Shown: positions 48,911 to 64,000 of the stretch, piece after piece
How the letters are laid out: every line of letters begins with the position of its first letter
Position numbering within the stretch: position 1 is the first letter of the stretch
Source of the DNA: Gemmatimonadota bacterium
GTDB lineage: Bacteria > Gemmatimonadota > Gemmatimonadetes > Gemmatimonadales > GWC2-71-9
DNA: 64,000 bases
Direction of reading: 5' to 3'
NCBI GenBank assembly: GCA_003222195.1
Contig: QHVB01000035.1
Location: forward strand, 19 to 64,018
Notes under the pieces: model-generated
What the model saw: the letters and a program-made list of their open reading frames with translations, nothing else
Database searches by the model: none
What the model was told of the DNA's origin: nothing
Program-made: the position numbers and the translations under genes

Positions 48911-50812
48911 TCACGAGCCGTCTAGAACCTCCCGCACCTTCGCGGCGAGGTTGTCGCCCGAGAATGGCTTGTTGATGAACGCCGTATTCCGCGCGAGCAC
49001 GCCGCGATGCACAATCGCATCCTCCGTGTAGCCGGACATGAACAAGACCTTGAGGTCGGTACGCCGTGACACCAGCTCGCCGGCCAGGGTCGGGCCGCTG
49101 GCCCCGGGCAACACCACGTCGGCGAGCAGCAGGTGGATGGGACCGACGTGCTCCCGCGCGAGCGCGAGCGCCGCGTCCGCGGTCCCCGCCTCGAGCACCA
49201 TGTAGCCATGCTTCTCGAGTAAGCGCCGGGTGAGCGCGCGCAAACCCACTTCGTCCTCCACCAGCAGGATCGTCTCCGAACCCAGCGTCCGCGGGAGGGC
49301 AGCGCGTGCCGGGAATTGGTCGACGGGAGCATCAACACGCGGCAAGTACACCTTGAACGTGGTCCCCTCGCCACGCTCGCTATAACACCACACGTAGCCG
49401 CCGCTCTGCTTCACAATCCCATACACGGTCGCCAGGCCAAGACCGGTGCCCTTGCCTGCCTCCTTGGTCGTGAAAAACGGCTCGAACACGTGCGACATCG
49501 TCTCGGCCGACATCCCGATTCCCGTATCGCTGACCGCGAGCATGACGTAACGGCCAGGTTGCACCGGCACGTGCTCGCGCACGTACGAGTCATCGAGCTC
49601 GGCGTTGCGTGTCTCGATCGTGAGCCGCCCACCTTCGGGCATCGCGTCCCGCGCATTCACCGCGAGATTGACGATCACCTGTTCCAGCTGGCCCGCGTCC
49701 GCCCGCACGGCTCCCAGCGTGGACCCGAGTTTCGTCAGCACGTCGATGTCCTCTCCCAAGAGCCGCCGCAGCATCTTGTCCATGTCGGCGACCAGCTCGT
49801 TGAGGTCGAGCACGCGCATCTCCAGCACCTGCTTGCGGCTGAACGCCAGGAGCTGGCGCGTGAGCGCGCCGGCGCGATTGGCCGCTTTGCGGATTTCCTC
49901 GAGGTCCGGTCGCAGCGGCGAGAGCGTCGGCAGGCCATCGAGCAGCAGGTCCGCGTAGCCCAGAATCGCAGTCAGCAGGTTGTTGAAATCATGCGCCACG
50001 CCGCCCGCCAGACGCCCCACCGCTTCCATTTTCTGCACCTGGAGGAACTGCCGCTCGAGTACGCGGCGCTCCGTGACGTCCCGAGCGTTGATGACGACGC
50101 CCTTCACCAGGGGATCGTCCAGGAGATAGCGGCCGATGGCTTCGAGGTGGCGGAACGTCCCGTCTTTATGGCGCACGCGCAGCTCGAGGAGCCGGCCGCC
50201 CTGACCCGTCGCTACGCCCTCGCTGAAAACACGCAGCGTCTCATCGACATCGTCGGGGTGCACCAGCGCGAAGATCGACAGCCCCACAAGATCTTCGGGA
50301 GCGTAGCCGAGCAGTGGCAACACCGAGGGGCTCGCATAGCGAAGCGCCCCCTCGGGGTCGAGCACCGCGATGATGTCCATGGCCTGCTCGATCAACGACC
50401 GGAAGTACTCCTCGCGCTCGTCCAGCTGCTGCTTCATCCGCTTGCGGTCGAGCGCGGCGCGGACCGCCGGCCCCAGGCGGGCGAGCCGGTCCTTCAGGAT
50501 GTAGTCCGTCGCTCCCGCCTTCATGTACTCGACGGCGCTTTCCTCATCGAGCGAGCCGGTGAGCAGAATGAACGGCGCCGCCAGCGCCATCTGCCGCGCG
50601 AGTGCCAGCGCGGCAGCGCCGTTGAATTGCGGGAGATTGTGGTCGGCAATGATGAGATCGGGGCGAAACTCGCGCAGGGCGCGCTCGAACTCCGGTTGTG
50701 TCGTGACCCGTCGCGCCGTGAACTGCAGGCCCGCCTTGCGCAGCTCGACCTTCACCAGCTCAGCATCGGCCCACACGTCCTCCAACAGGAGGATGCGGAC
50801 ATTCCCTTCCAA
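48911..50812 (-). CDS. hybrid sensor histidine kinase (REC-PAS-HisKA-HATPase-REC)
   Basis: N-terminal REC (ILLLEDV..DLIIADHNLP..), PAS, H-box ..GGVAHDFNNLLTAILGY.., N/G boxes ..NLAVNARDAM..DTGIGM..GTGLGLA.., C-terminal REC ..ILLVEDE..LLLADVVLPG... Confidence 0.9.
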   Translation of the reverse strand: MEGNVRILLLEDVWADAELVKVELRKAGLQFTARRVTTQPEFERALREFRPDLIIADHNLPQFNGAAALALARQMALAAPFILLTGSLDEESAVEYMKAGATDYILKDRLARLGPAVRAALDRKRMKQQLDEREEYFRSLIEQAMDIIAVLDPEGALRYASPSVLPLLGYAPEDLVGLSIFALVHPDDVDETLRVFSEGVATGQGGRLLELRVRHKDGTFRHLEAIGRYLLDDPLVKGVVINARDVTERRVLERQFLQVQKMEAVGRLAGGVAHDFNNLLTAILGYADLLLDGLPTLSPLRPDLEEIRKAANRAGALTRQLLAFSRKQVLEMRVLDLNELVADMDKMLRRLLGEDIDVLTKLGSTLGAVRADAGQLEQVIVNLAVNARDAMPEGGRLTIETRNAELDDSYVREHVPVQPGRYVMLAVSDTGIGMSAETMSHVFEPFFTTKEAGKGTGLGLATVYGIVKQSGGYVWCYSERGEGTTFKVYLPRVDAPVDQFPARAALPRTLGSETILLVEDEVGLRALTRRLLEKHGYMVLEAGTADAALALAREHVGPIHLLLADVVLPGASGPTLAGELVSRRTDLKVLFMSGYTEDAIVHRGVLARNTAFINKPFSGDNLAAKVREVLDGS

Positions 50813-50906
50813 TTCGTGTCTCCGGTCGAGCCTCTCGGTCTCAGCCTAGCAGCTAGGACCGGAGGGCGAAGTCGGGAAAGGACCGGAGATTGGGGAGGAG
50901 GACTAC

Positions 50907-51563
50907 CTAGGAATCGGGATGGACGAGCCCCACCTGGATGGCGTAGCGCACCAGCCCCGCCACGCCATGAATGCCGAGGCGCTCCATGAGCTCGGTGCGG
51001 TGCGTCTCGACGGTCTTCAGCGCCACCTGGAGGCGGCTCGCGATCTCCTTGTTGGAATGCCCCTCGGCGACGAGCTGCAGCACCTCGCGCTGGCGCGGGG
51101 TGAGTACTTCGAATGGTCCGTCGGGAGCTGCGCGGGCGCCCAGCGCATACGCCGCGACGACACGCTTGGTGAGTGACGGGCTGAGCCATGTATCGCCACG
51201 CGCAACCGTGTTCAACGCCAGCTCGAGCTCGCTACGATCGGAATTCTTGAGCAGATAGCCTGCCGCGCCGTCCACCAGCGCGCGCCGCACCGATTCGTCG
51301 TCGCCGTGCATGGAGACGATGATGACGCGCGTAGCCGGGTGTTCCTGTGCCACCCGGGCGGCCACCTCCAGGCCGTTGAGTCCCGGCATGGAGATGTCGA
51401 GCAGCGCGATGTCGGGTTTGCGCTCACGGATGAGCCGCAGCGCTTCGCGGCCGTCGCCGGTTTCCGCCACCACCGTGACGCCGGGCAGCTCGCTCAGGAG
51501 CGCGAGCATCCCCGCGCGCACCAGGGCATGATCGTCCGCGAGCAGGAGTCGCAGCGTGCTCAT
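50907..51563 (-). CDS. NarL/LuxR-family response regulator
   Basis: REC (LLLADDHALVRAG..DIALLDISMPGLNG..) plus HTH_LuxR (..LTPRQREVLQLVAEGHSNKEIASRLQVALKTVETHR..). Confidence 0.92.
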   Translation of the reverse strand: MSTLRLLLADDHALVRAGMLALLSELPGVTVVAETGDGREALRLIRERKPDIALLDISMPGLNGLEVAARVAQEHPATRVIIVSMHGDDESVRRALVDGAAGYLLKNSDRSELELALNTVARGDTWLSPSLTKRVVAAYALGARAAPDGPFEVLTPRQREVLQLVAEGHSNKEIASRLQVALKTVETHRTELMERLGIHGVAGLVRYAIQVGLVHPDS

Positions 51564-53389
51564 GTGTCGCTGCCCGCGGTCAGTGGTAGGCGCGCGCGAA
51601 CGGTCGTTCCCCGGCCGGGTGCCGAGTCGATCTCGAGGTCGCCGCCGGCGAGTGCGACGCGCTCCTGCATGCTCAGCAGGCCCTGGCTCCCGCCGTGCGC
51701 GGCGCGCTTGCGTGCGGCGGAGACATCGAAGCCGCGGCCATCGTCGTGCACCACGAGTTGCAGCGTTCCGCTGGCCGCGCTGAGCTCGACGTCAACGACA
51801 TGTGCCTGCGCGTGGCGGATGACGTTCGTGAGTGCCTCCTGCGCGACACGGAAGCAGGTCGTCTCCACCGCCGCCGGCGGCCGCTGCGCGAGCGGCGCGA
51901 GGGCGAGGCGGCTGGCGAGCCCGGCCCGTTTGGCCTCCCGCTCCACGTACCACCGCAGCGACGCCTCGAGCCCGAGCTCATCGAGCAGCGGCGGGCGCAG
52001 GTCCTGCGCCAGCTCGCGCATCCGCGCGATCGCGCCGTCCACCAACGCGATGCTCTCGGCATCACCACGACCCTGGGCCTGAAGGTTGAGCTTGAGCGCG
52101 GTGAGCACCTGCCCAAAGTCGTCGTGGAGCTCGCGCGCGACCGCGCGGCGCTCTGCTTCCTGCGCCTCGATTAGCCGCCGCGACAACGCCTCGAGCTGCA
52201 GCGTGCGCCGAGCGAGCTCCTCCTCGGCGCGCTTGCGCTCGGTGATATTCGCATTGGTGCCGTACACGCGGAGCGGCCGGCCTGACTCGTCGCGGACCAC
52301 CGTGGCGCGGCCGAAGATCCAGTGCAGGCTGCCATCGGGCCGGACGACGCGGTACGCGATGTCTCCCGACCCCGTGCCCGCGAGCAGCTGTCCGCGGCGC
52401 TCCGTCACCCACGCCCGATCGTCGGGGTGGAGGACGTCGACGTAATCCTCGAGTCGAGCACCTTTGCTCGCGTCGTCGCCAAAGAAGAGGCGCCGATTCG
52501 CTTCCGTGTTGACGATCGCTCCGCTGATGAGGTCTTGCTCCCAGCTTCCGGTCTGTCCCAGCGTCTCCGCCTCGACCAGCAGGCGCTCGGTCTTGCGCAG
52601 CGCTTCCTCGGCACGCACCTGGTCGGTCACGTCGTCGTTGACCACAACGGCGCCCGTGATATTGCCGGCGCCATCCCGCATGGGTGCCGCGTAATTCTCG
52701 ATCGTCCGCCGCTGGCCGTCGAACGTGTTGATGTCGATCAGCTCATCGCGGCTGATTTCCCCCTCCGCGATCGCGCGCCGCGACGCCCATTCCTCGGGGC
52801 CGATCGCCTTCCCCGAGCCGTGCCAAAAGCCCTCACTCTTGGCATACCGTTCCTGTCCCGGCACGATCAGGCGCCCCCAAATCCGGCTGGAGGCCGGGTT
52901 GTGCAGTACCACGTCGCCGGCGCGATCGACCACCGCCACCCCAACGGGGAGGGTGTCGAGCACCTGTCGCAGCTGCGACTCGGCTTCCTTGAGCTTGCTG
53001 ATGTCGATCATCGCGCCGACCGCGCGCCGAGCCCGGCCCTCGGCATCGCGCTCGATGACGCAGCGCGACGCCACCCAGGCCCACGAGCCGTCTTTGCGGC
53101 GGAAGCGGTACTCGTTGGACCATCCCGGGGCGTCGCCGCGGATGGCGTCCGCGGCGGTCTGCTCGACGCGCGCGAGGTCGTCCGGATGGACCCGCTCGCG
53201 CCACCACCCGAGGTGGCTCGCGACTTCGTCGCGCCGGTACCCGAAGATCGACTCCAGGTTTTCATCCCAGCTCAGCGCGTCGTTGTCGAGATCGCGCTCC
53301 CAGATGGCCTCGAAGGCGACACCGGCCAGCCGGTCCCGCGCTTGGCTCAGATCGGTGGAAGATCCGAAGGGAGGTTTCATCACTGACAT
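51560..53389 (-). CDS. multi-PAS sensor histidine kinase (HisKA_3 / NarX-like class)
   Basis: Three PAS-like blocks, H-box ..VARELHDDFGQVLTALK.., HATPase ..EALTNVIRHA..DDGRGF... 4-nt overlap with the response regulator gene. Confidence 0.9.
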   Translation of the reverse strand: MSVMKPPFGSSTDLSQARDRLAGVAFEAIWERDLDNDALSWDENLESIFGYRRDEVASHLGWWRERVHPDDLARVEQTAADAIRGDAPGWSNEYRFRRKDGSWAWVASRCVIERDAEGRARRAVGAMIDISKLKEAESQLRQVLDTLPVGVAVVDRAGDVVLHNPASSRIWGRLIVPGQERYAKSEGFWHGSGKAIGPEEWASRRAIAEGEISRDELIDINTFDGQRRTIENYAAPMRDGAGNITGAVVVNDDVTDQVRAEEALRKTERLLVEAETLGQTGSWEQDLISGAIVNTEANRRLFFGDDASKGARLEDYVDVLHPDDRAWVTERRGQLLAGTGSGDIAYRVVRPDGSLHWIFGRATVVRDESGRPLRVYGTNANITERKRAEEELARRTLQLEALSRRLIEAQEAERRAVARELHDDFGQVLTALKLNLQAQGRGDAESIALVDGAIARMRELAQDLRPPLLDELGLEASLRWYVEREAKRAGLASRLALAPLAQRPPAAVETTCFRVAQEALTNVIRHAQAHVVDVELSAASGTLQLVVHDDGRGFDVSAARKRAAHGGSQGLLSMQERVALAGGDLEIDSAPGRGTTVRARLPLTAGSDT

Positions 53390-53572: not shown

Positions 53573-54562
53573 CTAGATGGCAGCACACCCTCGCATAAGA
53601 CTTGCGCGGAAGAGGTCAGCAAAGACATGGACGTGGGATTCCAGGAGCATGTGGTCACCGTCGCAGCCGTCCGGCCCGACGTGCTTCTCCGTTTCGCGCG
53701 CTACCCGTTTCCAGCGAAGCATCGGGCTGCCCGGGCGCAGCCATCCCTTGTTGGGGAGAAACAAGCTGAGACGGCCGTCGAAATGGCGCGGTGTGTAACG
53801 ACGCAGCCCCACGATCGTGGCCGCCTGAACCTTCGCGCGGAGCACCTCCACGGGATCCGGCGGGGCGGGAGGGGCGTTCCGCCGCGCTTTGCGGTCGCGC
53901 AGTCTCTGGGTGATGTACCGGCGGCGCTCCCCATTTGAAAGCGACAGCAGCACACGGGCGTGCTCGCGTACACTTTCCACCTCACCCGCGATGCGCTGTC
54001 CGAGTTGCGGCAGCCGCCGATACGAGGTTGGATACGGACTCGTGAACAGGGCGACGAAGCGAATGGCCGCGCCGTGCTGCAGCAGTTGTCGCGCAAGCTC
54101 GAACGCGATCGTCCCTCCCGCACAATAGCCGGCGATGACGTACGAATCGTCGGGCCGATAGGCCCGGATCTGGGCGGCGAAGTAGGCAGCCAGATCCTCA
54201 ACGCGCGTCAGGGGCTCGCTCTGACCATCGACACCCGGAGGCTGCAGTCCGAAGAACGGCTGATCGTCCCCCAAGTGCTGCGCGAGGAGACGGTAGCAGA
54301 AGACGTCGCCGCTGTGTCCCGGCACGCCAAAGATGGGAGCGCGCATGCCGTGCGGCTGCAGCGGCACGATGGCCCGCTCTTGCTGGGTGAGCGTCTCGAC
54401 CGAGCGGAGGAATTCCACAATATCAGCCTTGCGCTCGCGCAGCTGGTGGCGCAGCTCGGGCGTCAGCACACCGGTGGGGGCAGTGCACCGCAGCTGGTCG
54501 CCGTCCGCCCAGACCCGGATGTCGCGGCTCCGCAGCTCCTCGAGAAAGGCCGGCACGATCAC
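53573..54562 (-). CDS. TubC-N-type docking domain fused to a thioesterase with a Cys nucleophile (GYCAG)
   Basis: The GTG start forms a GTGA overlap with the NRPS stop (the track ORF to 54811 is an out-of-frame extension over the T domain). AFLEELRSRDIRVWADGDQLRCTAPTGVLTPELRHQLRERKADIVEFL docking motif. Alpha/beta-hydrolase ..IFGVPGHSGDVF..VIAGYCAGGTIAFELA..GDHMLL... Confidence 0.8.
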   Translation of the reverse strand: MIVPAFLEELRSRDIRVWADGDQLRCTAPTGVLTPELRHQLRERKADIVEFLRSVETLTQQERAIVPLQPHGMRAPIFGVPGHSGDVFCYRLLAQHLGDDQPFFGLQPPGVDGQSEPLTRVEDLAAYFAAQIRAYRPDDSYVIAGYCAGGTIAFELARQLLQHGAAIRFVALFTSPYPTSYRRLPQLGQRIAGEVESVREHARVLLSLSNGERRRYITQRLRDRKARRNAPPAPPDPVEVLRAKVQAATIVGLRRYTPRHFDGRLSLFLPNKGWLRPGSPMLRWKRVARETEKHVGPDGCDGDHMLLESHVHVFADLFRASLMRGCAAI

Positions 54563-57486
54563 AGCGCGAACTCCTCTCGCTCGACGGCGTCGGCGGCCGG
54601 CGCGTTCGCCTTCGCGACCCAGGCCAGCTGCTCGATGACCTCGGCCAGCCCGGCGATCGTCGGCCGCTCGAACAGGTTGCGGAGCGGCAGATCCACCCCG
54701 AAGGTATCCCGGATGCGCGACAAAGCCTTGATCGCGACGAGCGACTGTCCCCCCAAGTCGAAGAAATCGTCGTTGATGCCGATGCTCTCCACGACGAGCA
54801 ATTCGCGCCACATCGCGGCGAGTGCCTTCTCGGTCTCCGTGCGCGGCCCGACGACCTCGTGCGCCGGCTGGATGTTCTCATGCGCGAGTGCCGGGAGAGC
54901 TAGGCGATCGACTTTGCCGTTGGACGTGAGCGGCAACCTGTCCAACCGGATGAAGTACGTGGGAAGCATGTAATCCGGTAACCACGTCGCGAGATGGGCG
55001 CGCAGCTCCGCCGCGGTCAGCGCCGTCTCGCTTACGTAGTACGCCGCCAGGCGGTTGATGCTGGTCTCGGTCGTTTGCGCCGGCTCGGAGTAACCGATCT
55101 GCCGCAGGATCTGCTGAACCCGCGATTCGTCAATTTCATCCTCGAGCTCTGCCATTGCCTCAGCGCGGGTTTTTTGCCCGAGGCGCACGTCCCAGCTGTA
55201 GGGCAGCGAGTAGTTGTGGAACCCACGCTGCTTCTTGTGGACGTAGATGCCGACATCGTTGATGAGGCAGTTGGTGGACCGGCCCGTATCGGAGGGACGG
55301 AGCCAGGGTGTGCGCTGTCGCAAATAGGTGTGCAGCTCCGCCAGCGGCACGCTCCAATACCGATAGAAGTCGACAAACTGGATGTCGCGGAACACGCCAT
55401 CGTCACGGAAGATGTCCACCTCGAGGTGACACGAGACCGCATCCTCGCGCCGGTGGTAGGCCTTGCGTGCCTCGAGCACGAGGTCGTCCAGCTTGGCGAC
55501 GTCGAAATCCTCCCGCTGGAACACCTCTTCGGTCAGGCGAGTCTCGAAGAACTGCCCGCGCGATAGTCCGGTGACGATGTAGCGGATGCCTTTCTGCTGA
55601 GCGAGGTTGGTGGCCAGGGTGTAGATGGTCTTGAAGCAGCCATTGCAGACGTTCGCGAAGCGCTTGAGGCTGTCGACGAAGATCTCGTTCATGTGCGGCG
55701 TACCACCCATAATCAGGTCCACGCCCAGCGAGTCCACGACCCGGCGGATGTTGGCCTTCGCCTCGTCCGAGATGAAGCCATTATCCAACGTGAAGACCAG
55801 CGGCTTCAGTCCGAGGTCGCAGAGCTGATACAACATGTACGTGCTGTCCTTGCCGCCGCTTAACAACACCAGACAGTCGTACTCCCCTCCCCCGGTTCGT
55901 GTCGCCTTCATCTGCGCAACGAGTGCTTTAAGCTCATCGGGCGACTTGAAATACGCCTGCGCCTTAGCGACGTAGGTGTCCAGGCCGCGGCACACATTGC
56001 ACACCCCCGTCGCGTCGTAACTCGTCCCCGGTACGTTGGACGCGAGACCGCACCGCGTGCAGTAGGTCAATCGTTTCGCCGCCCGCATGGCGAGGGGATT
56101 GACGATATCAACCACGCACTCGCGCACGTCGGCGTGCTCCAGCAACCGGGCCTCGATCTCGCCCAGCTCGATGCGCGCGCCGGCGACCTTCACCTGGTGA
56201 TCCGCGCGGCCAAGGAATTCCATCCGGCCATCGATGCCCCAGCGCGCGAGGTCGCCGCTCTTGTACAAGCGGAGCGGCGCCGCCGGGTCCTTCTGTCTCG
56301 GATCACCCGCGGTCAGGAATCTCTGCGCGGTGAGGTCCGGACGATTGAGGTAGCCCCGCGCCAGTCCATCTCCCGCGAGGTACATCTCACCGATGACGCC
56401 GCTGGGCACGGGACGAAGCTGCTCGTCGAGGATGTAGATGCCGGTATTGGCAGCGGGAGTTCCGATCGGCACCGAGAGGGCGAGATCCTTTTCCACGTCG
56501 TAGCGGTGAATCATGCAACCGACCGTGGCCTCGGTCGGACCATATTCGTTGTAGATATCGACGGGGCGGCCGAAGTTATCGGTGATCTCGCGCGCCAGCG
56601 CAGTTTTGAAATCCTCGCCGCCTACGATGAGCTTGCGAATCCTGGTGGCGCCGAGATTCATGTCTTTGATCATCGCGAGATGCGCGGGCGTGAGCTTTAC
56701 GATATCGACCGCACCGCTCTCGATGACTTTGAAGATCGCCATGCCAGGCATTCCGGGGTCCTCCCGGACGACCACGATACGACCACCCGAAATGAGCGGG
56801 GTGAAGATCGATGTCACCGTGAGATCGAACGCCAGCGAGGAGAACAGCGGCCAGGCCAGGCGTTCGCCGCGGCTGTACCGCTCCTTGGCCCACCAGATGT
56901 AATTCACCAGGCTGCGGTGCTCGATCATCACACCCTTGGGTGTGCCGGTGGAGCCCGACGTGTAAATGACGTAGGCGAGACTGTCGGGGGCGGTAGGCCG
57001 CCCGGGATTCACCACCGGTAATCCCGTGATCGGCGCGAGGTCGGCGTCCAACGTCATGACGCGCGCGGCGCTCCGCGGAACGCTGCTTTCCAAATGCGAT
57101 TGCGTCACCAAGACAGGCAGCGCGCCGGCGCGTGCGGCGGCGATATCCCGCAGCATGAAGGCGAGGCGTTCCTTCGGAGACGCCGGATCGACGGGCACGT
57201 ACGCGGCGCCGGTCTTGAGCACGCCGAGGATGGCGCACACCACGTCGATCGAGTGGTCCATATACAGCGCCACGAGCTGGTCCGGGCCAACGCCGCGTGC
57301 GCCGAGATGCGCTGCCACCTGGTTCGCGCGGTCCTTGAGCTCGCGATACGTCAACGATTGATCGGCGTAGTGGATGGCGTCGTCGTCTGGCGTGCAGGCG
57401 ACCTGGGCTTCAAAGAGCTCCACGACGGTCTTGTCGGCCGGGTATGGCGAGGCCGTGTCGTTGTACGCGCGGAGGTCTTGATTCAT
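54559..57486 (-). CDS. stand-alone NRPS module: adenylation domain interrupted (A8/A9) by a PP-loop amidotransferase-like domain, plus a thiolation domain
   Basis: ATG in an ATGA overlap with the ACAD stop (MNQDLRAYND..). A3 YTSGSTGTPKG, A5 NEYGPTE, A7 YKSGDLARW, A8 GRADHQVKVAGARIELGEIE. Then about 350 aa with YCTRCG..CNVCRG and LLSGGKDS. Then A9 LPDYMLP, A10 NGKVDR, and T domain DFFDLGGQSL. No C or E domain. Confidence 0.88.
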   Translation of the reverse strand: MNQDLRAYNDTASPYPADKTVVELFEAQVACTPDDDAIHYADQSLTYRELKDRANQVAAHLGARGVGPDQLVALYMDHSIDVVCAILGVLKTGAAYVPVDPASPKERLAFMLRDIAAARAGALPVLVTQSHLESSVPRSAARVMTLDADLAPITGLPVVNPGRPTAPDSLAYVIYTSGSTGTPKGVMIEHRSLVNYIWWAKERYSRGERLAWPLFSSLAFDLTVTSIFTPLISGGRIVVVREDPGMPGMAIFKVIESGAVDIVKLTPAHLAMIKDMNLGATRIRKLIVGGEDFKTALAREITDNFGRPVDIYNEYGPTEATVGCMIHRYDVEKDLALSVPIGTPAANTGIYILDEQLRPVPSGVIGEMYLAGDGLARGYLNRPDLTAQRFLTAGDPRQKDPAAPLRLYKSGDLARWGIDGRMEFLGRADHQVKVAGARIELGEIEARLLEHADVRECVVDIVNPLAMRAAKRLTYCTRCGLASNVPGTSYDATGVCNVCRGLDTYVAKAQAYFKSPDELKALVAQMKATRTGGGEYDCLVLLSGGKDSTYMLYQLCDLGLKPLVFTLDNGFISDEAKANIRRVVDSLGVDLIMGGTPHMNEIFVDSLKRFANVCNGCFKTIYTLATNLAQQKGIRYIVTGLSRGQFFETRLTEEVFQREDFDVAKLDDLVLEARKAYHRREDAVSCHLEVDIFRDDGVFRDIQFVDFYRYWSVPLAELHTYLRQRTPWLRPSDTGRSTNCLINDVGIYVHKKQRGFHNYSLPYSWDVRLGQKTRAEAMAELEDEIDESRVQQILRQIGYSEPAQTTETSINRLAAYYVSETALTAAELRAHLATWLPDYMLPTYFIRLDRLPLTSNGKVDRLALPALAHENIQPAHEVVGPRTETEKALAAMWRELLVVESIGINDDFFDLGGQSLVAIKALSRIRDTFGVDLPLRNLFERPTIAGLAEVIEQLAWVAKANAPAADAVEREEFAL

Positions 57487-58631
57487 AGCGACGACGCGAT
57501 CATCTCCTTCAGGATCTCGTTGGTGCCGGCGTAGATCCGGTGCACACGGCTGTCGGTCCACATGCGGGCGATCGGATACTCCGCCAAGTAGCCATAACCG
57601 CCGTGCAGCTGCAGGCATTCATCGACGACGCGGCACTCGGCGTCGGTCAACCAATATTTGGCCATGGCGGTGCTGAAGGCGTCGAGCTCGCCGGCGACGA
57701 AGCGCTCGACGCAGTCGTCGAGGAAGACGCGGGCGATGTACGCTTCAGTCTTGCACTCGGCCAACTTGAAGCGCGTATTCTGAAAGTCGATCAGCGGCTT
57801 GCCGAACGCGTTGCGCTCTTTCACGTACTTGGTCGTGACGGCGACGGCTCGCTCTGCGGTTGCGACGGCGGCCACGCCGATCGCCAGGCGCTCATAGCTC
57901 ATCTTGTCCATGATCTGGAGGGACCCCTTGCCTTCGGCAGGACCGAGCAGGTTCGCGGCCGGCACCCGCACGTTGTCAAAGAACAGCTCGCAGGTGTCCT
58001 GCGCATGCATGCCGATCTTCTCGAGCGGACGGCCGACGCGGTAACCGGGAAGATCTCTTGTTTCAACCATGATGAGTGAAATGGCCTTCGGTCCCGTCGC
58101 TTTCGGATCGGTTTTCACCGCGAGGCAGACGAGGCCTGCGTGCCAGCCGTTCGTGATGAACGTCTTCGAGCCATTGATGACGTATTGGTCACCGTCGCGG
58201 CGGGCAGTCGTTGCAATGCCTTGCAGGTCCGAGCCCGCCGCGGGTTCGCTCATCGCAACGGCGCCAACCAGCTCTCCGCGCGCCATGCGGGGGAGCCACT
58301 CGCGTTTTTGCGCTTCGCTGCCGTACGCGAGGATGTAGTGCGCAACATTGTCATGAATGAAGGAATGAAGGGGCACGCCTTCGCGCGCGAGCTCCTCCAC
58401 GACGACGGTTTCGTGGACGAACGTGCCTCCTCCGCCACCATATTCCGTTGGGACATCGCTGAGCAGCATCCCCACCGAGCCGGCTTTGGTCCACGCGTCA
58501 GGGTCCGGGAATCGCTGCTCGCGCCAGCGGTCCTGGTGAGGGACGAATTCGGTGCGTACGAACGCGCGGATGGTCGAGCGGAACGCCCGCAGCGCGTCAC
58601 CCGTCCGGGGGGGTTGGGAGAGAGAGATCAT
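57483..58631 (-). CDS. acyl-CoA dehydrogenase family flavoprotein
   Basis: Internal ATG (MISLSQPP..) in an ATGA overlap with the PPTase stop. ..AMSEPAAGSDL.., ..GSKTFITNG.., ..MSYERLAIG.. (IVD/LCAD-type Glu position), ..IYAGTNEILKEMIA (no Glu in the YEGT position). Confidence 0.9.
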   Translation of the reverse strand: MISLSQPPRTGDALRAFRSTIRAFVRTEFVPHQDRWREQRFPDPDAWTKAGSVGMLLSDVPTEYGGGGGTFVHETVVVEELAREGVPLHSFIHDNVAHYILAYGSEAQKREWLPRMARGELVGAVAMSEPAAGSDLQGIATTARRDGDQYVINGSKTFITNGWHAGLVCLAVKTDPKATGPKAISLIMVETRDLPGYRVGRPLEKIGMHAQDTCELFFDNVRVPAANLLGPAEGKGSLQIMDKMSYERLAIGVAAVATAERAVAVTTKYVKERNAFGKPLIDFQNTRFKLAECKTEAYIARVFLDDCVERFVAGELDAFSTAMAKYWLTDAECRVVDECLQLHGGYGYLAEYPIARMWTDSRVHRIYAGTNEILKEMIASSL

Positions 58632-59293
58632 GCCTGGCTGGCGATCGCCACTACGTAGCCCGCAGCTGGACACAAACTGTCCAGCCGCCAGCCGGAGTCG
58701 TCCCCGGGTGTGTCCTCGACGCGCAGGACCTTCGCCGGATCCCCCGGAGCGAGCGTCACGTCGAAGCGATCGAGCGGCATCGAGAGGCCATCGCCGAGCG
58801 CCTTGACGAAGGCTTCCTTGCGGGTCCAGCAGTTGAAGAATCCCAGCGGCCTGTCGCATGGCTTGAGGCTGCGATACGTCGCGTTCTCGAGGCGCGAGAA
58901 ATAGCGTGCGGCGATGTTGTCGGCGTCGCTGATCTCCCGGACGGCTTCGACGTCGATGCCGATCGCGTGTCCGCCTGAAAACGCGTACGCCGCCACATCA
59001 TCGCAATGCGATACGTTGAAGTGCAGGTCCGAGTCCGCGAACCGCCGTGAGAGTACCGGCTTGCCGTACGCGCCGTACTCGAACTCGACCGCCTGCGCTC
59101 GCACACCCAGCCGCGCCGCGAGCAGCTGGCGCAGGCGTGCTCGCGCGACGATGAATCGGCTGGCGTCGCGATCGAAGGCAAACCGCCGCGCCCGGTGGCG
59201 CTCGGCATCCGAGAGCAGCGCCGCCGACGCACGAACGGCTTCGGGCGCGGCGGCCAAGCGCGTCACCACGACCTCGATGGGCGCGTCGGTCAT
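58628..59293 (-). CDS. Sfp-type 4'-phosphopantetheinyl transferase
   Basis: Internal start MTDAPIEVVV.. (221 aa). ..HFNVSHCDD.., ..GIDVEAV.., ..FFNCWTRKEAFVKALG... The upstream 105 codons of the track ORF are Arg-rich and non-protein-like. Confidence 0.85.
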   Translation of the reverse strand: MTDAPIEVVVTRLAAAPEAVRASAALLSDAERHRARRFAFDRDASRFIVARARLRQLLAARLGVRAQAVEFEYGAYGKPVLSRRFADSDLHFNVSHCDDVAAYAFSGGHAIGIDVEAVREISDADNIAARYFSRLENATYRSLKPCDRPLGFFNCWTRKEAFVKALGDGLSMPLDRFDVTLAPGDPAKVLRVEDTPGDDSGWRLDSLCPAAGYVVAIASQA

Positions 59294-59629
59294 TTCCACG
59301 TCTGTGCCCTTCCCCTGGGTGTGGTGCCGACGCTCGTGTGCATGGTTGGTGCCAAGCACTGCGCGCAGAGGCCAGCACGACAAGTGGCCCCGTTTCATCA
59401 GACTGATGCGCTCGCGCAACGTCTGGCGGTGCCGCCTTCGCAACGGTGGAGCGAGACGGCGGGCGGCGCAGCTCTTGCCCAAAGGGCGGCGCCAAGAGGG
59501 TCGGCATCGCTCGTCTACGACACGCGCACCGGGGGGAAAGCGGGATTGCAAAGTCGGCCGCTGGTCATCGGGCCCGCTGTTCGCACCAGCGGCGTCCGGG
59601 TCACGCAAGCCCCGCCAGCCACACCAGGG

Positions 59630-60712
59630 GTGACGCAGACATCCCTGTCGGAGGCTCTAGCGTTCGGGCCCGATGCGTGGGATGCGCTGCGCGCGCGCAG
59701 CACACCGCCATCCCCATTCATGAGCTGGGCGTGGCATCGTGCGTGGGCAAACTCGGCGCCGCCGGCGGAAGTGGATGCGACCCGGGTTCTCCTGCTCCAC
59801 GGCTCGGACAGCTCGCTTCAGGCCATGTTGCCCCTCCGCATGTGCCGCTTTCGGTTCCACCGGGTCTGGGTGCGTGCGCTGAACTGGGCCATCGGGGAGA
59901 TCGGCTGTCCGGATCAGCTTGACGTGCTGGCTCGGCCCGAGGCCGACATGCGATCCTTCGCGGCGGCGATCGAAGCCATGCCGTGGGAGGTTATTATCCT
60001 CGACAACCTCGTGGAGGCAGCTCCCAATGCGGAGCGGCTGTGCGCCGCCCTTGCGGCACGCGGCCATGCGATCCGACGGAGCCCGCTGTGGAGCTGTCCG
60101 CGGCTCGAGTTGCCGCGTTCGTGGGACGCCTACCTCACGACGCTCAGCTCGAACCGACGCCAGATCCTGCGCCGCAAGGAGCGCAGCCTTTTTCGAGATC
60201 ACGCCGCCACCCTTGTGGACTATGGGGAAGACCGGCTCGACGAGGGCTGGGACCACTTGCTGCGGTTGCACGAGCAGCGCTGGGACGGTGCAGGCGGGGG
60301 AGCGTTCCGCGACCCTCGCAACGAGCGGTTGCAGCGGCAGTTCGCCGGTGAGATGGCGAAGCAAAAGCGACTCTGGCTTACTACGCTGGACTTGGACGGG
60401 CAACCCGCAGCGGCTTGGTACGGCTTTACCTCCGACGACACCGTGTACTTCTACCAGAGCGGGCGAGCCTGGCGCTGGAAGCGGGAAAGCGTGGGCCTGG
60501 TGTTGATGGGACTGATGATTCAGCGCGCGATTCAGCAGGGGTATCGCACGTTCGACTTCCTGCGCGGGGACGACCGTTACAAACACCACTGGACGCCGGC
60601 GCGACGGAAGACCAGCGAGACCGTGATCTTCCGCTCGGGGTGGAGAAGGCTCTGGTTGCGCGCGCTTGATGCGGTCTCGGCGTTGCGGCAGGGAGTACCG
60701 CGCGACGCCTGA
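59630..60712 (+). CDS. CelD/BcsL-like GNAT (FemAB-fold, Acetyltransf_6 family) acyl/aminoacyl transferase
   Basis: GTG start assumed (VTQTSLSEALAFGPDAWDAL..), 360 aa. ..PFMSWAWHRAW.., ..RRQILRRKERSL.., ..YFYQSGRA..SVGLVLMGLMIQRAIQQGYRTFDFLRGDDRYKHHW.. is typical of the family. The start is uncertain. Confidence 0.72.
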   Translation: MTQTSLSEALAFGPDAWDALRARSTPPSPFMSWAWHRAWANSAPPAEVDATRVLLLHGSDSSLQAMLPLRMCRFRFHRVWVRALNWAIGEIGCPDQLDVLARPEADMRSFAAAIEAMPWEVIILDNLVEAAPNAERLCAALAARGHAIRRSPLWSCPRLELPRSWDAYLTTLSSNRRQILRRKERSLFRDHAATLVDYGEDRLDEGWDHLLRLHEQRWDGAGGGAFRDPRNERLQRQFAGEMAKQKRLWLTTLDLDGQPAAAWYGFTSDDTVYFYQSGRAWRWKRESVGLVLMGLMIQRAIQQGYRTFDFLRGDDRYKHHWTPARRKTSETVIFRSGWRRLWLRALDAVSALRQGVPRDA

Positions 60713-60891: not shown

Positions 60892-63800
60892 TCAACCCGA
60901 GGACTCCTTGACCGCACTGGCCCTCTCCCTCGGCGCGAGATTGGGCGCCAAGACTTCTGCATAGCGAGCAGGGTTCCGGATTCCCTGGCTGTGCATCCAT
61001 GCGTCGGCCGCGTGAACCAGCGAGCGCCCCTCGTCGCCGCTCAACATCTCCCCCAGGCGGCGTCGCACGACGTGGGCGTGCACGGCCATTTGCGCCGCGT
61101 CGAACGCCGCGGTCGCTCGCTCCAGCAGCGGGGCCACGTCGGCTACCTCGCCACGCGCGACCGAGAGTCCCGCGCGTAGGAGCAGCGCGAGCGCGTCGGC
61201 CCAGGCCAGCCGCTCGCGCTCGAGCTGTCCGACATCGCGTTCAGCCACCGCGAGCAGTGGGGCGCGGTCAGCGCCACCGGCGGCAGCCGCAAGCGCACAG
61301 CGAGCGCGCAAATCGCGCATGTTGATCCGGACGCCCTGGACGCGCAGCAGCCCCGACGAGACGAGTCCCGGCCAGTCCCGCCTGAAGCCCTCCCACGCGA
61401 GCGCCGGCTCCCCGCGATAGAGCAGGATGTGCCCGCGCGCGACCATCGTCCAGTAGTGCGGGACGCCGAACTCTTCCTGATGCCACTCCCGCACGGCCTC
61501 GTCCAGATTCCGCTCCGCGCCAGCCACGTCGTCTGCCGCGAGCCACACCGCGTTGGTGAACCCGGAGCGGCAGTAGAAGCCAGCCAAGCGATTGCCGCGC
61601 TCACGGGCGTTGCTCAGGAACGTGCGGCTGCGCCGTGCCAGCTCCGGGAAGTCACCGATGAAGTAGCAGGCATATGTTTGGTACAATTGCGCCGTATTGA
61701 GCTCCCAGGGAACGCCGCCGCACTCGAGCAGCAGCTGCTCGGCGCGCTCCGCGAACCCACGTGTGTGCTCCCACCGCCCCTCGTAGAAGGCGGCGACGCA
61801 AGAAGCCAGCTCGCACAAGGCGAGCGCGTGCTGAGACTGAATCCGCTCGGCGAGGGGGCGAGACACCGCGATCAGCTGTGCGGCGCGCCGTCGACCGGTG
61901 CTGCTTTGGCTCGCCGTGAACGCCGCCTCCAGCGCGAGGCCGCGCGCGACGCGGTAGGGCTCACCCGCGCGAAGGGCGAGGAGGAGGTGACGCGCGAGGA
62001 AGTCGGCGGCGCGAAGGTTGTCGACCAGGGCTAGCCCTGCGGCCACCGCCCAGCAGGTGTCGATGCGCGCGAGCTCCCGAGCTCCAATGTCCGCAACTGA
62101 CCGCTCCCGAAACGTCAACCCCCTCAACCGGACCGCCGCTCGCCGCCATAGCAGCGAGAGGATCGCCCGCCGCGGCGTGGGCGCGAGCTCGAGCCCCACC
62201 GATCGCAGTACGGTGCGTATGACGTCGAGCCCAGCCTCGAGATGGCCGCTGATCAGCAGCTGCTCCGCCGCCCGCCGCTGGTATTGGAGCGCGTCCTCCG
62301 GTGCACCGGCAGCCGCGGCGGCCAGGTACGCCTGCGCCGCAGCGGGACAGCGGGCGGCGCTCGCCAGTGCATCGCCCAGCCTGACTCGCAATGCGGACAG
62401 GTCAGCCGCACCCGGTGCAGTGAGCTCCAGCGCGCGCTCGTAGAGCAGGGCAGCACGGTCGAACGCGAGAGCCGCGAAGGCCTTGTCTGCGGCGCGGGCC
62501 GCGTACACGGCGGCCCGATCGCGGTTGCCCGCCGCGACGTAATGTTCGAACAGGGCCTCGGGATCCTCGAGCCCCAACAACTCCTCGGAGCACTGCGCGA
62601 GCCGCCAGTGGATGCCGGCAGCCACTTGGGGCGCCAGAGCCGCGACCAGCGTTTCTCGCATACGGTCGTGATACAGCTCGAGCCGCGAGGGAGCACCCAA
62701 GCTGCGCAGGAAGTGCGCCTTGATCAGGAGTGCGACCAGCGGCCGGTCATCGCCTTCGAGGCCGGCCGCCGCGCGTGCGACCTTGGCATCGACGGGCCGA
62801 CCGGCGACGGCCAGCGTGGCGAGGAGCGGGCGCGCCCCTTCCGGGAGAGCGCGTATGCGGGATTCCAGCATTTCGCCCAAACCGATGCCCGTCGCCCTGG
62901 CGGCGTCATTCGAATCGAGCGCATACCGCACGATCTGCTCCACCAGGAACGGACTGCCTGCAGACTCGCGGATGATGGTGTCCGCCTGCACCCTCGGTGG
63001 TCCGCTCGACGACACTAACAGCGTCTCGGTCAAGCGCATCGTGTCGGCCGAGGTCAGAGGCCCGAGCCGGCAGGCGCGACAGGCCGGGGTGTCGGCGTGC
63101 TCGAGCAGGGCGCGCAGGAAGGGCTGCGAGGCGAGATCTTCGGTGCGGAAGGATGCAATCAGCAGCACGTGGGGCGGATCGGGAGGGCGCAGCACGTCCT
63201 CGAGCAACACCATGCTGTCGTGGTCCGCCCACTGCAGGTCGTCGATGAACACGAGAACGGGTTGTTGCGCAGAGAGTCGCACGAGCAATTGCCGGAGGCA
63301 CGCGAATCCGCGTTGCCGCAACGCCAACGGATCGGCCGGCTCACGCTCACCAATGCGCGCGTCTCCCACGGCCTCGATCCTGAGCAGGACCGGGAACAGC
63401 CGGGCGAGCGCAGATACGCCCTCCGGTAGCAGCGCCTTTACCTGCGGACCCGCCAGCGTCTTGAGGTAGCGACTCAAGCTGTCGATGACGCCGTCCACTG
63501 CCTTGTACGGCACCGACTCGCGCTCATAACAGCGACCCCTCAGCACCAGAGCCGCGGCTTCTCGCTCGACGGCGTCGGCGAAATGACCGATCAGCGCACT
63601 CTTGCCGATCCCGGAGACGCCATGCACGTAGAACGTGACTGCCTGACCGAAACCCACGGTGCCGAAGGCGTCTCGGAGCTGGGCGAGCTCCGCGTCGCGC
63701 CCGATGAGGGACGGCGGGCGCCCGGGTTCGTGGGCCTCCGCTCCTGACGTCGTGTGCTCTAACACGCCGGTGCGGCGCAGGATTTCCCCGTCCTCCGGGC

Positions 63801-64000
63801 GAGCCGCTGGGTCGCGAGCCATGAGATCACCGCATAGCGTCACGAGATCCTCGGGAAGCTCCGGCACGAGCTCGCTCGATCTCGGCGGATCCTGCCGACC
63901 CTTATCGGCGAGGACTCTCAACGCGCTGCCCTGAAACGGGAGCCGCCCGGTCAGCGCTTCGTACAGCATTACGCCCACCGCGTACCAGTCGCTCGCGGGG
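60892..64000 (-). CDS. Ser/Thr protein kinase fused to an AAA/STAND ATPase and TPR-like C-terminal region; the 5' end lies beyond the window
   Basis: The reading frame continues past 63978 (..SDWYAVGVMLYEALTGRLPF is kinase subdomain IX). P-loop ..FYVHGVSGIGKSAL.., Walker B ..VLVFIDDLQWAD.., then about 600 aa of helical-repeat region. Confidence 0.85.
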   Translation of the reverse strand, partial: PASDWYAVGVMLYEALTGRLPFQGSALRVLADKGRQDPPRSSELVPELPEDLVTLCGDLMARDPAARPEDGEILRRTGVLEHTTSGAEAHEPGRPPSLIGRDAELAQLRDAFGTVGFGQAVTFYVHGVSGIGKSALIGHFADAVEREAAALVLRGRCYERESVPYKAVDGVIDSLSRYLKTLAGPQVKALLPEGVSALARLFPVLLRIEAVGDARIGEREPADPLALRQRGFACLRQLLVRLSAQQPVLVFIDDLQWADHDSMVLLEDVLRPPDPPHVLLIASFRTEDLASQPFLRALLEHADTPACRACRLGPLTSADTMRLTETLLVSSSGPPRVQADTIIRESAGSPFLVEQIVRYALDSNDAARATGIGLGEMLESRIRALPEGARPLLATLAVAGRPVDAKVARAAAGLEGDDRPLVALLIKAHFLRSLGAPSRLELYHDRMRETLVAALAPQVAAGIHWRLAQCSEELLGLEDPEALFEHYVAAGNRDRAAVYAARAADKAFAALAFDRAALLYERALELTAPGAADLSALRVRLGDALASAARCPAAAQAYLAAAAAGAPEDALQYQRRAAEQLLISGHLEAGLDVIRTVLRSVGLELAPTPRRAILSLLWRRAAVRLRGLTFRERSVADIGARELARIDTCWAVAAGLALVDNLRAADFLARHLLLALRAGEPYRVARGLALEAAFTASQSSTGRRRAAQLIAVSRPLAERIQSQHALALCELASCVAAFYEGRWEHTRGFAERAEQLLLECGGVPWELNTAQLYQTYACYFIGDFPELARRSRTFLSNARERGNRLAGFYCRSGFTNAVWLAADDVAGAERNLDEAVREWHQEEFGVPHYWTMVARGHILLYRGEPALAWEGFRRDWPGLVSSGLLRVQGVRINMRDLRARCALAAAAGGADRAPLLAVAERDVGQLERERLAWADALALLLRAGLSVARGEVADVAPLLERATAAFDAAQMAVHAHVVRRRLGEMLSGDEGRSLVHAADAWMHSQGIRNPARYAEVLAPNLAPRERASAVKESSG

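Follow-up and report, generated by a model that had tools for sequence, protein, structure and literature searches.

Which reaction does an ATP pyrophosphatase-like domain carry out when it is embedded in an adenylation (A) domain of a nonribosomal peptide synthetase (NRPS), and to which kind of pathway does such a protein belong? This question is raised by a gene on contig QHVB01000035.1 of a Gemmatimonadota bacterium (GenBank assembly GCA_003222195.1), of which positions 19 to 64,018 of the forward strand, a stretch of 64,000 nucleotides called the window here, were analyzed. A first-pass annotation, made from the letters alone, had described the encoded protein of 975 amino acids (aa) as an A domain into which a PP-loop domain is inserted, and had proposed that the side-chain carboxamide of activated or carrier-bound asparagine is converted to an amidine or a nitrile. 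In this study, we used profile searches, alignments, structure models and a survey of related loci to place the protein among known systems, to describe the gene cassette to which it belongs, and to weigh the reactions that may be assigned to it. All feature coordinates are collected in Table 1.

Architecture and predicted substrate of the module

The gene is read on the minus strand as a stop-free open reading frame (ORF) from the ATG at 57486 to 54559, and is contained in a longer minus-strand ORF (54559..57618) of the ORF list. A reading of 54559-57486 on the plus strand was rejected due to many stops. In the protein, Pfam AMP-binding matched aa 25-380 (E 3e-81) and the NCBIfam amino-acid adenylation profile TIGR01733 matched aa 46-459, with the A8 motif GRADHQVKVAGARIELGEIE at aa 426-445, while Pfam AMP-binding_C was found at aa 807-858 only (profile positions 23-76). 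As AMP-binding_C resumes at aa 807 and the profile TIGR03573 matches in between, an insert of about 340 aa splits the A_sub subdomain exactly between motifs A8 and A9. In an AlphaFold2 (AF2) model of the whole protein (predicted local distance difference test, pLDDT, 72.8), the strand 456-462 precedes the insert, the strand 812-818 follows it, and an alpha/beta unit lies between the two. There was no Pfam match for a Condensation domain in the 975-aa protein. The ORF is confirmed as an NRPS protein composed of an A and a thiolation (T) domain, with the A domain split at A8/A9 by a PP-loop domain of about 340 aa. The first-pass annotation had placed the insert at this site with correct coordinates and had left the strand, which is minus, unstated. 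It had also held the insert to be none of the usual methyltransferase, ketoreductase or oxidase kinds, and indeed no such Pfam or NCBIfam profile matched within aa 460-810.

Motif-anchored extraction of the specificity-conferring residues gave D221, L222, T225, K264, I287, G289, E314, V322, G323 and K858, i.e., the asparagine code DLTKIGEVGK, which is identical to the code extracted by hand in the first pass. The nine pocket positions that could be mapped by alignment read DLTKIGEVG in 118 of 120 close homologs. Among 144 more divergent representatives bearing the same insert, 129 follow the pattern DLTK[IV]GEV[GA], and 97 are identical to the window protein at the nine residues.

Relation to the AMDH domains of CysH and AlbIV

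The code string DLTKIGEVGK led to the relevant literature, since it is also listed for the cyanoalanine residue Cya-3 of albicidin, whose activating domain in AlbIV has a 342-aa insert (PMC12283262). For AlbIV, dehydration of Asn to beta-cyanoalanine in cis by the same kind of insert was proposed in 2015 (Cociancich 2015, as cited in PMC7966384 and PMC12283262). The homologous 38 kDa domain of CysH was named aminomutase/amide dehydratase (AMDH) by Gross et al. in 2021 (PMC7966384). The insert of the window protein can be aligned to this AMDH domain over the full domain length (aa 468-799, corresponding to 55090-56085) with 185 of 334 residues identical (55%; E 1e-131) and with SGGKDS aligned, and the A cores of both proteins share 47% identity. 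In their N-terminal parts, CysH and AlbIV have the same nine readable specificity residues (positions 235-331; from the supplement of PMC7966384); for AlbIV the comparison covers the N-terminal 399 aa, so that the insert lies outside of it.

Experiments on CysH define the chemistry that may be expected from such a domain. L-Asn is the preferred substrate, and a +114 Da adduct of CysH with L-Asn was converted to a +96 Da adduct only with the AMDH domain present. In vitro, the carrier-bound L-Asn was dehydrated to beta-cyano-L-alanine, while isoasparagine was made in vivo, and deletion of the AMDH domain in vivo led to the loss of both isoasparagine and cyanoalanine linkers. The reaction mechanism was left open (all PMC7966384). 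The source data of that study list the 25 closest AMDH homologs, including two proteins of Gemmatimonadetes metagenome-assembled genomes (MAGs) and proteins of Microvirga flocculans and Bradyrhizobium jicamae; the clades in this list are those recovered here.

By its sequence, the window protein belongs to the CysH/AlbIV class already known, i.e., it has an AMDH-interrupted and Asn-specific A domain, for which the catalysis is predicted. The first-pass annotation had known of no characterised A domain with such chemistry; this claim of novelty does not hold, because the same A-insert-T architecture and the same code were already characterised in AlbIV (2015) and CysH (2021). The claim matters little, as PP-loop inserts dehydrating amides have been known since albicidin and were reconstituted for cystobactamid. 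A survey of interrupted A domains from 2020, which deals with methyltransferase inserts only, does not mention an amidotransferase or PP-loop insert (PMC8341866), and no paper on AMDH domains published after 2021 was found in a literature search of papers accessible without subscription. What is new relative to the known class is the four-gene cassette in which the module is found, a context that is undescribed.

The four-gene cassette and its relatives

On the minus strand of the window, genes for a 4′-phosphopantetheinyl transferase (PPTase), an ACAD-family flavoprotein, the A(AMDH)-T module and a thioesterase-fold protein (TE) follow each other with successive 4-nt overlaps indicating translational coupling. 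The ATG of the module overlaps the ACAD stop codon (ATGA), and the module stop codon overlaps the TE start (GTGA). The best NCBIfam profiles for the flavoprotein were AcrC (288 bits) and the prolyl-PCP dehydrogenase RedW (201 bits). An N-oxygenase of the DszC or nitrososynthase type was considered for it and rejected, since the best profiles are true dehydrogenases and DszC reached 35 bits. In the TE, a cysteine replaces the nucleophilic serine; the GxCxG motif is kept in 24 of 24 close homologs, and Cys is also present in many TEs of multimodular loci with an AMDH domain. The last residues of the module are conserved as REEIxL among homologs in the 25-sequence alignment, and this conserved tail, together with the TubC_N domain on the partner TE, makes the C-terminal tail the likely docking peptide for the N-terminal docking domain of the TE. 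In some relatives (P0081, P0097) module and TE form one fused protein.

For a survey of the genomic contexts, the cassette proteins were compared by tblastn with 84 related loci, and two context classes could be separated, namely a cassette with a single A domain and multimodular NRPSs. In the first class, PPTase, ACAD and the cysteine thioesterase (Cys-TE) accompany the single A domain in all 20 distinct loci having flanks, in two gene orders and two phyla. The gene order of the window is also found in Gemmatimonadota and on an Acidobacteria-like contig, while the order is PPT-TE-A-ACAD in Microvirga, Bradyrhizobium and Mesorhizobium. In the second class, the AMDH-bearing A domain lies within multimodular NRPSs. 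One example (L078:3197-19948, from a Leptolyngbyaceae MAG) comprises an ornithine cyclodeaminase, an ACAD protein and a free A domain, followed by C-A(AMDH)-T-C, C-A, a methyltransferase, a glycosyltransferase and T-C, where C denotes a condensation domain. Here, the free A domain and its partners are likely to provide a pyrrole-2-carboxyl starter from proline. Similar layouts were seen in L055, L064, L071 and many loci of Chloroflexota, Planctomycetota and Bacteroidota, which suggests an orphan NRPS family shared by several phyla.

The context of the window cassette differs from those of albicidin and cystobactamid. This bears on the question whether the cassette feeds an NRPS at all. The Cys-TE might be an aminoacyl shuttle of the CysB/SyrC/CmaE type that delivers the modified Asn to an NRPS carrier encoded elsewhere; CysH and CysB work exactly in this way, as a stand-alone A-AMDH-T protein with a shuttle (PMC7966384), and the TE of the window has both the cysteine nucleophile and a docking domain. 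In the known cases, however, shuttle and acceptor share one cluster, whereas the scanned ORFs of the window include no other NRPS or polyketide synthase (PKS) gene, and in 19 of the 20 distinct loci with a single A domain, complete Microvirga replicons among them, the 10 kb on either side hold no further A domain. We therefore consider such trans-loading unlikely, though it is the alternative that survives best.

Two loci with the cassette, L001 (Microvirga sp. M2, CP134064.1) and L003 (a metagenome contig), have it beside polysaccharide genes, which encode glycosyltransferases, a heparinase II/III-like protein, an AsnB-like amidotransferase, a pyruvyl transferase and a Wzm/Wzt ABC transporter. 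The cassette of Microvirga sp. M2 is located on a replicon of 1.94 Mb annotated as plasmid. A general link to polysaccharide biosynthesis was rejected, because the adjacency in L001 and L003 is absent from the window and from L002.

Relation to N-acetyl sugar amidotransferases

The first-pass annotation had compared the insert with PseA/WbpG-like amidotransferases, i.e., with N-acetyl sugar amidotransferases (NASATs). This family is defined by the motif SGGxDS and a Zn-binding CxxC-xn-[GN]xCxxC motif (PMC10607449), and both are found in the insert (SGGKDS; C476, C479, G494-V-C496 and C499), where the tetracysteine reads YCTRCG...GVCNVC. The profile TIGR03573 'N-acetyl sugar amidotransferase' matched aa 474-794 (profile positions 2-325 of 344; E 6.8e-38) with a score of 131 bits, which is under the family cut-off of 203.2. 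By profile search, LpNASAT (8WEX) is the nearest solved relative in sequence (E 2e-7), and with a model of the insert only, Foldseek also ranked 8WEX first (E 3.7e-10; template modeling score, TM, 0.45), followed by YcfA, TtuA, LarE and AsnB. The identity to three true NASATs is about 20%, with PP-loop and tetracysteine common to both groups.

The genomic neighborhood separates the two groups as well. True NASAT genes adjoin the ammonia-supplying genes hisH/wbuZ, and no HisH/WbuZ homologs were found in the window or in the 84 related loci. On plasmids of Rhizobium sp. WL3 (L085:1815-4225) and Azospirillum thermophilum (L086:228-3092), NASAT genes were seen beside wbuZ/hisH or hisF/hisH-like genes and genes for nonulosonic-acid sugars. 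The pairing with hisH/wbuZ is thus a practical marker for separating amidine-forming NASATs from NRPS-embedded AMDH domains. Because of the score below the cut-off, the low identity and the missing HisH/WbuZ neighbors, membership of the insert in NASAT proper is not supported. In its broad lines the earlier family assignment is right: PP-loop and tetracysteine are both present, and 8WEX is the best structural match.

This also bears on the two products that had been proposed for the Asn carboxamide. If the insert acted like WbpG, WbuX or PseA on N-acetyl sugars, it would turn the carboxamide into an amidine with ammonia, and the TIGR03573 match, the shared motifs and the best structural match could be taken in favor of this. 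Yet the change observed for CysH is -18 Da, while an amidine would give -1 Da, the insert is far closer to the CysH AMDH domain (55%) than to true NASATs, and the partners HisH/WbuZ are missing. Amidotransfer on Asn to an amidine is therefore very improbable, whereas the nitrile agrees with the activity of the homologous CysH AMDH domain (PMC7966384).

Additional invariant cysteines

Beyond the tetracysteine, the AMDH domains have four invariant cysteines (C614, C617, C740 and C538), of which C614, C617 and C740 are also present in CysH. The corresponding CNGC and STNC positions are free of cysteine in the three true NASATs. In a phmmer alignment, the CNGC pair is aligned with the CxxC of an archaeal LarE structure (8cnz/8cp3). 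In the [4Fe-4S]-dependent LarE of T. maritima, SGGxDS is combined with a CXXC-C motif that holds a three-cysteine cluster, as in TtuA (PMC9283937). Purified CysH was dark brown, and Gross et al. looked only for the radical-SAM motif CxxxCxxC (PMC7966384). From the alignments, C614/C617 and C740 may form a third site, for a metal or an Fe-S cluster, which is missing from NASATs. The extra invariant cysteines, the alignment with LarE and the brown color of CysH give rise to the hypothesis of a TtuA-like Fe-S center in AMDH domains.

The same observations could suggest a sulfur insertion, in which the domain would be an Fe-S thiolase like TtuA, LarE or YcfA that makes a thioamide on Asn, the nitrile of CysH being a shunt product formed without a sulfur donor. 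The Foldseek matches to YcfA, TtuA and LarE, the alignment of C614xxC617 with the LarE CxxC, the motif combination of the T. maritima enzyme and the dark brown CysH protein are all compatible with this. Against it, albicidin and minor cystobactamids contain cyanoalanine and thioamide congeners are unreported (PMC7966384), there was no sulfur carrier or desulfurase among the scanned cassette genes and flanking ORFs, and both the third cluster ligand, for which C740 or C538 would be candidates, and the spatial clustering of the cysteines are hypothetical. We regard sulfur insertion as very improbable.

Distribution of the interrupted architecture

The window protein aligns collinearly over its whole length with more than 120 protein clusters at 63-100% identity. 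The PP-loop is found in 119 of 120 close homologs, and a regular expression for the tetracysteine matched in the same proportion (119/120); in the 25-sequence alignment the tetracysteine is invariant. A scan of about 185,000 species genomes, one genome per species, revealed relatives of the insert in 467 loci, and the best 80 of these are 59-95% identical and belong to Gemmatimonadota, Acidobacteriota, Rhizobiales, Chloroflexota, Planctomycetota, Cyanobacteria, Bacteroidota, Nitrospirota, Acidimicrobiia and others. Wherever enough upstream DNA was available (78 of 78 loci), an A-domain core ending at A8 directly precedes the insert. An exhaustive HMMER search gave 582 clusters at 50% identity (E ≤ 1e-30), mostly C-A(insert)-T modules of 1350-1900 aa. 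A frameshift or assembly chimera joining an A-domain gene to a PP-loop gene, a risk already named in the first pass, is refuted by this conservation and by the single ORF, in which both A_sub halves flank the insert in frame; the fusion is genuine and the probability of an artefact is negligible.

Proposed function and mechanism

Taking these data together, we consider it probable (about 72%) that the protein is a stand-alone Asn-loading module of the CysH/AlbIV type with an AMDH domain acting in cis, and that it is followed by steps of the ACAD protein and the Cys-TE. The carrier domain would be primed by the co-encoded Sfp-type PPTase, and the A domain would adenylate L-asparagine and load it onto its own carrier. 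The AMDH domain is predicted to act in cis on the tethered Asn as in CysH, thereby converting the carboxamide to the nitrile (beta-cyano-L-alanyl-S-T) and/or Asn to isoasparaginyl-S-T. The fold relatives NASAT, YcfA, TtuA, LarE and AsnB all use ATP to activate the oxygen of a carbonyl or carboxyl group, and O-adenylation is therefore the most economical route to a nitrile: ATP would O-adenylate the amide carbonyl, and loss of AMP from the imidate would lead to the nitrile, comparable to the activation in NASAT, YcfA, TtuA, LarE and QueC. The Zn(Cys)4 site is presumably structural, while the CxxC...C set specific to AMDH domains might bind an additional metal or Fe-S center. Judging from the operon partners, the ACAD protein would carry out an alpha,beta-dehydrogenation of the tethered product. 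The TE would dock via its beta-hairpin domain on the module tail, and its active-site cysteine would accept the acyl group, which would then be released, cyclised or passed to an acceptor.

Several points weigh against this assignment to a CysH/AlbIV-type module with downstream ACAD and Cys-TE steps. In the assays of CysH, the ATP requirement of the AMDH domain was never separated from that of the A domain (PMC7966384), and O-adenylation is derived from the family. The window protein is known here from its sequence, and its models are of moderate confidence, with a pLDDT of 65 for the insert-only model (below 50 in its C-terminal third) and about 73 for the whole protein. The roles of the ACAD protein and the Cys-TE are deduced from gene linkage. 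Finally, a CysJ-type hydroxylase, a CysQ-type methyltransferase and an acceptor NRPS module were all missing from the scanned ORFs of the window. What is known for CysH on the balance between nitrile and isoasparagine and on the further path of the product does not carry over to this protein.

A more far-reaching and tentative proposal is that the PPTase-ACAD-A(AMDH)T-TE cassette is an autonomous, NRPS-independent pathway to an undescribed small metabolite derived from Asn, and that the AMDH domain has a three-cysteine Fe-S site like TtuA and LarE; we lean slightly against it being right in full. The cassette is conserved in Gemmatimonadota from soil and in rhizobia (Microvirga, Bradyrhizobium, Mesorhizobium). 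If the proposal were true, candidate products of the cassette would be a dehydro-beta-cyanoalanine, a compound of the amino-maleimide type, or a donor of acyl groups to a polymer of the cell surface, and the Fe-S site would explain both the brown CysH protein and the dehydratase/aminomutase mechanism.

The AMDH family is large and always wired to an Asn-specific A domain, which makes it a reliable handle for genome mining of nitrile- or isoasparagine-containing products. The minimal ACAD/Cys-TE cassette in culturable rhizobia is a tractable system for a new Asn-derived metabolite. Moreover, the NASAT fold in combination with the extra CxxC...C set allows concrete mutational and spectroscopic tests of the AMDH mechanism.

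Feature coordinates and neighboring genes

Table 1. Features of the A(AMDH)-T module, its cassette and the adjacent acetyltransferase gene in the window.
Feature	Position	Strand	Basis and remarks
Stand-alone NRPS module gene A(AMDH)-T, 975 aa	54559-57486	-	ORF; Pfam and NCBIfam matches
A-domain core and first A_sub strand (aa 1-462, motifs A1-A8)	56101-57486	-	Pfam AMP-binding, TIGR01733
Inserted AMDH domain (aa 463-811) with a NASAT-like PP-loop fold	55054-56100	-	TIGR03573, CysH AMDH, Foldseek
Tetracysteine CxxC-x16-GxCxxC (C476, C479, C496, C499)	55990-56061	-	Predicted Zn binding as in NASAT
PP-loop SGGKDS (aa 543-548), ATP alpha-beta pyrophosphatase signature	55843-55860	-	Sequence
AMDH-specific invariant C614-N-G-C617 (in NVCNGCF)	55636-55647	-	Two alignments, one with 25 sequences
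Invariant C740 (in STNC)	55267-55269	-	Two alignments
A_sub remainder after the insert (aa 812-870)	54877-55053	-	Pfam AMP-binding_C; modeled strand 812-818
A9 motif LPDYMLP (aa 836-842)	54961-54981	-	
A10 motif NGKVDR (aa 856-861)	54904-54921	-	
Thiolation (carrier) domain (aa 888-951), serine in LGGQS	54634-54825	-	Pfam PP-binding, E 2e-14
C-terminal tail (aa 960-975; ...EREEFAL)	54562-54609	-	25-sequence alignment consensus
Sfp/HetI-type PPTase, 256 aa from ATG at 59398	58628-59398	-	Pfam ACPS; NCBIfam HetI, E 4e-48
ACAD-family flavoprotein, dehydrogenase type, 382 aa	57483-58631	-	Pfam ACAD N, M, C; ATG overlaps PPTase stop
Thioesterase-fold protein, 329 aa	53573-54562	-	Pfam Thioesterase, E 5e-24
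TE N-terminal TubC_N beta-hairpin docking domain	54404-54550	-	Pfam TubC_N, E 6e-20
TE cysteine nucleophile GYCAG (Cys in place of Ser)	54116-54130	-	Sequence
Divergent Acetyltransf_6 (FemAB/CelD-like GNAT), ~360 aa from GTG at 59630	59630-60712	+	Pfam PF13480, E 2e-30

The ORF of the PPTase extends to a TTG at 59608. Homologs of the divergently oriented GNAT gene were found near the cassette in several loci of Gemmatimonadota and relatives (L002, L003, L006, L010-L012), which is only part of the Gemmatimonadota loci, and not in Rhizobiales. Directly downstream of the cassette, the region 48911-53389 on the minus strand encodes a PAS histidine kinase (HisKA_3), a LuxR-type response regulator and a hybrid PAS histidine kinase/receiver protein; in Microvirga (L001), a GAF/PAS-receiver-LuxR gene is also located near the cassette. 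On the other side, a large AAA_16 ATPase is encoded at 60892-63978 (minus strand), with aa 1-69 matching the C-lobe of PknB, i.e., the tail of a Ser/Thr kinase. This protein resembles the TOMM kinase/cyclase fusion family, and its gene probably starts past the end of the window. In related loci, the cassette has no such AAA_16/kinase gene beside it.

Comparison with known systems

With classical interrupted A domains, which bear methyltransferase (MT), ketoreductase (KR) or oxidase/monooxygenase (Ox/MOx) inserts, such as A4-M of TioS or the Ox inserts of IndC/BpsA, the window protein shares the insertion site between A8 and A9 and the tailoring of a tethered substrate in cis, which is predicted here. 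Those inserts depend on S-adenosylmethionine, NADPH or FMN, whereas a PP-loop ATP pyrophosphatase is inserted here.

The NASATs (WbpG, WbuX, PseA, 8WEX) are alike in SGGxDS, the Zn tetracysteine and the overall fold. Unlike the AMDH domain, which is always embedded in an Asn-specific A domain, they are free-standing, act on acetamido groups of sugars, are paired with hisH/wbuZ and are devoid of the CNGC and STNC cysteines. In TtuA and T. maritima LarE, the PP-loop is followed after about 70 residues by a CxxC that aligns with C614/C617 of the AMDH domain, and structural similarity was found by Foldseek; these enzymes perform sulfur chemistry, none of which is known for AMDH domains.

AlbIV (NRPS-2*) of Xanthomonas albilineans is likewise a stand-alone A-T protein with an adenine-nucleotide alpha-hydrolase insert of about 342 aa (PMC12283262, PMC7966384), but it belongs to a PKS-NRPS assembly line. 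CysH from the cystobactamid cluster of Cystobacter velatus has the same stand-alone A-insert-T organization with the insert between A8 and A9, and SGGKDS, the tetracysteine and the cysteines of NVCNGCF and STNC are all conserved. The difference lies in the partners: the cystobactamid cluster has the beta-hydroxylase CysJ, the O-methyltransferase CysQ, the shuttle CysB and, as part of a large NRPS, an acceptor module, whereas the module of the window is accompanied by an ACAD flavoprotein, a PPTase and a Cys-thioesterase with a docking domain, with no NRPS nearby.

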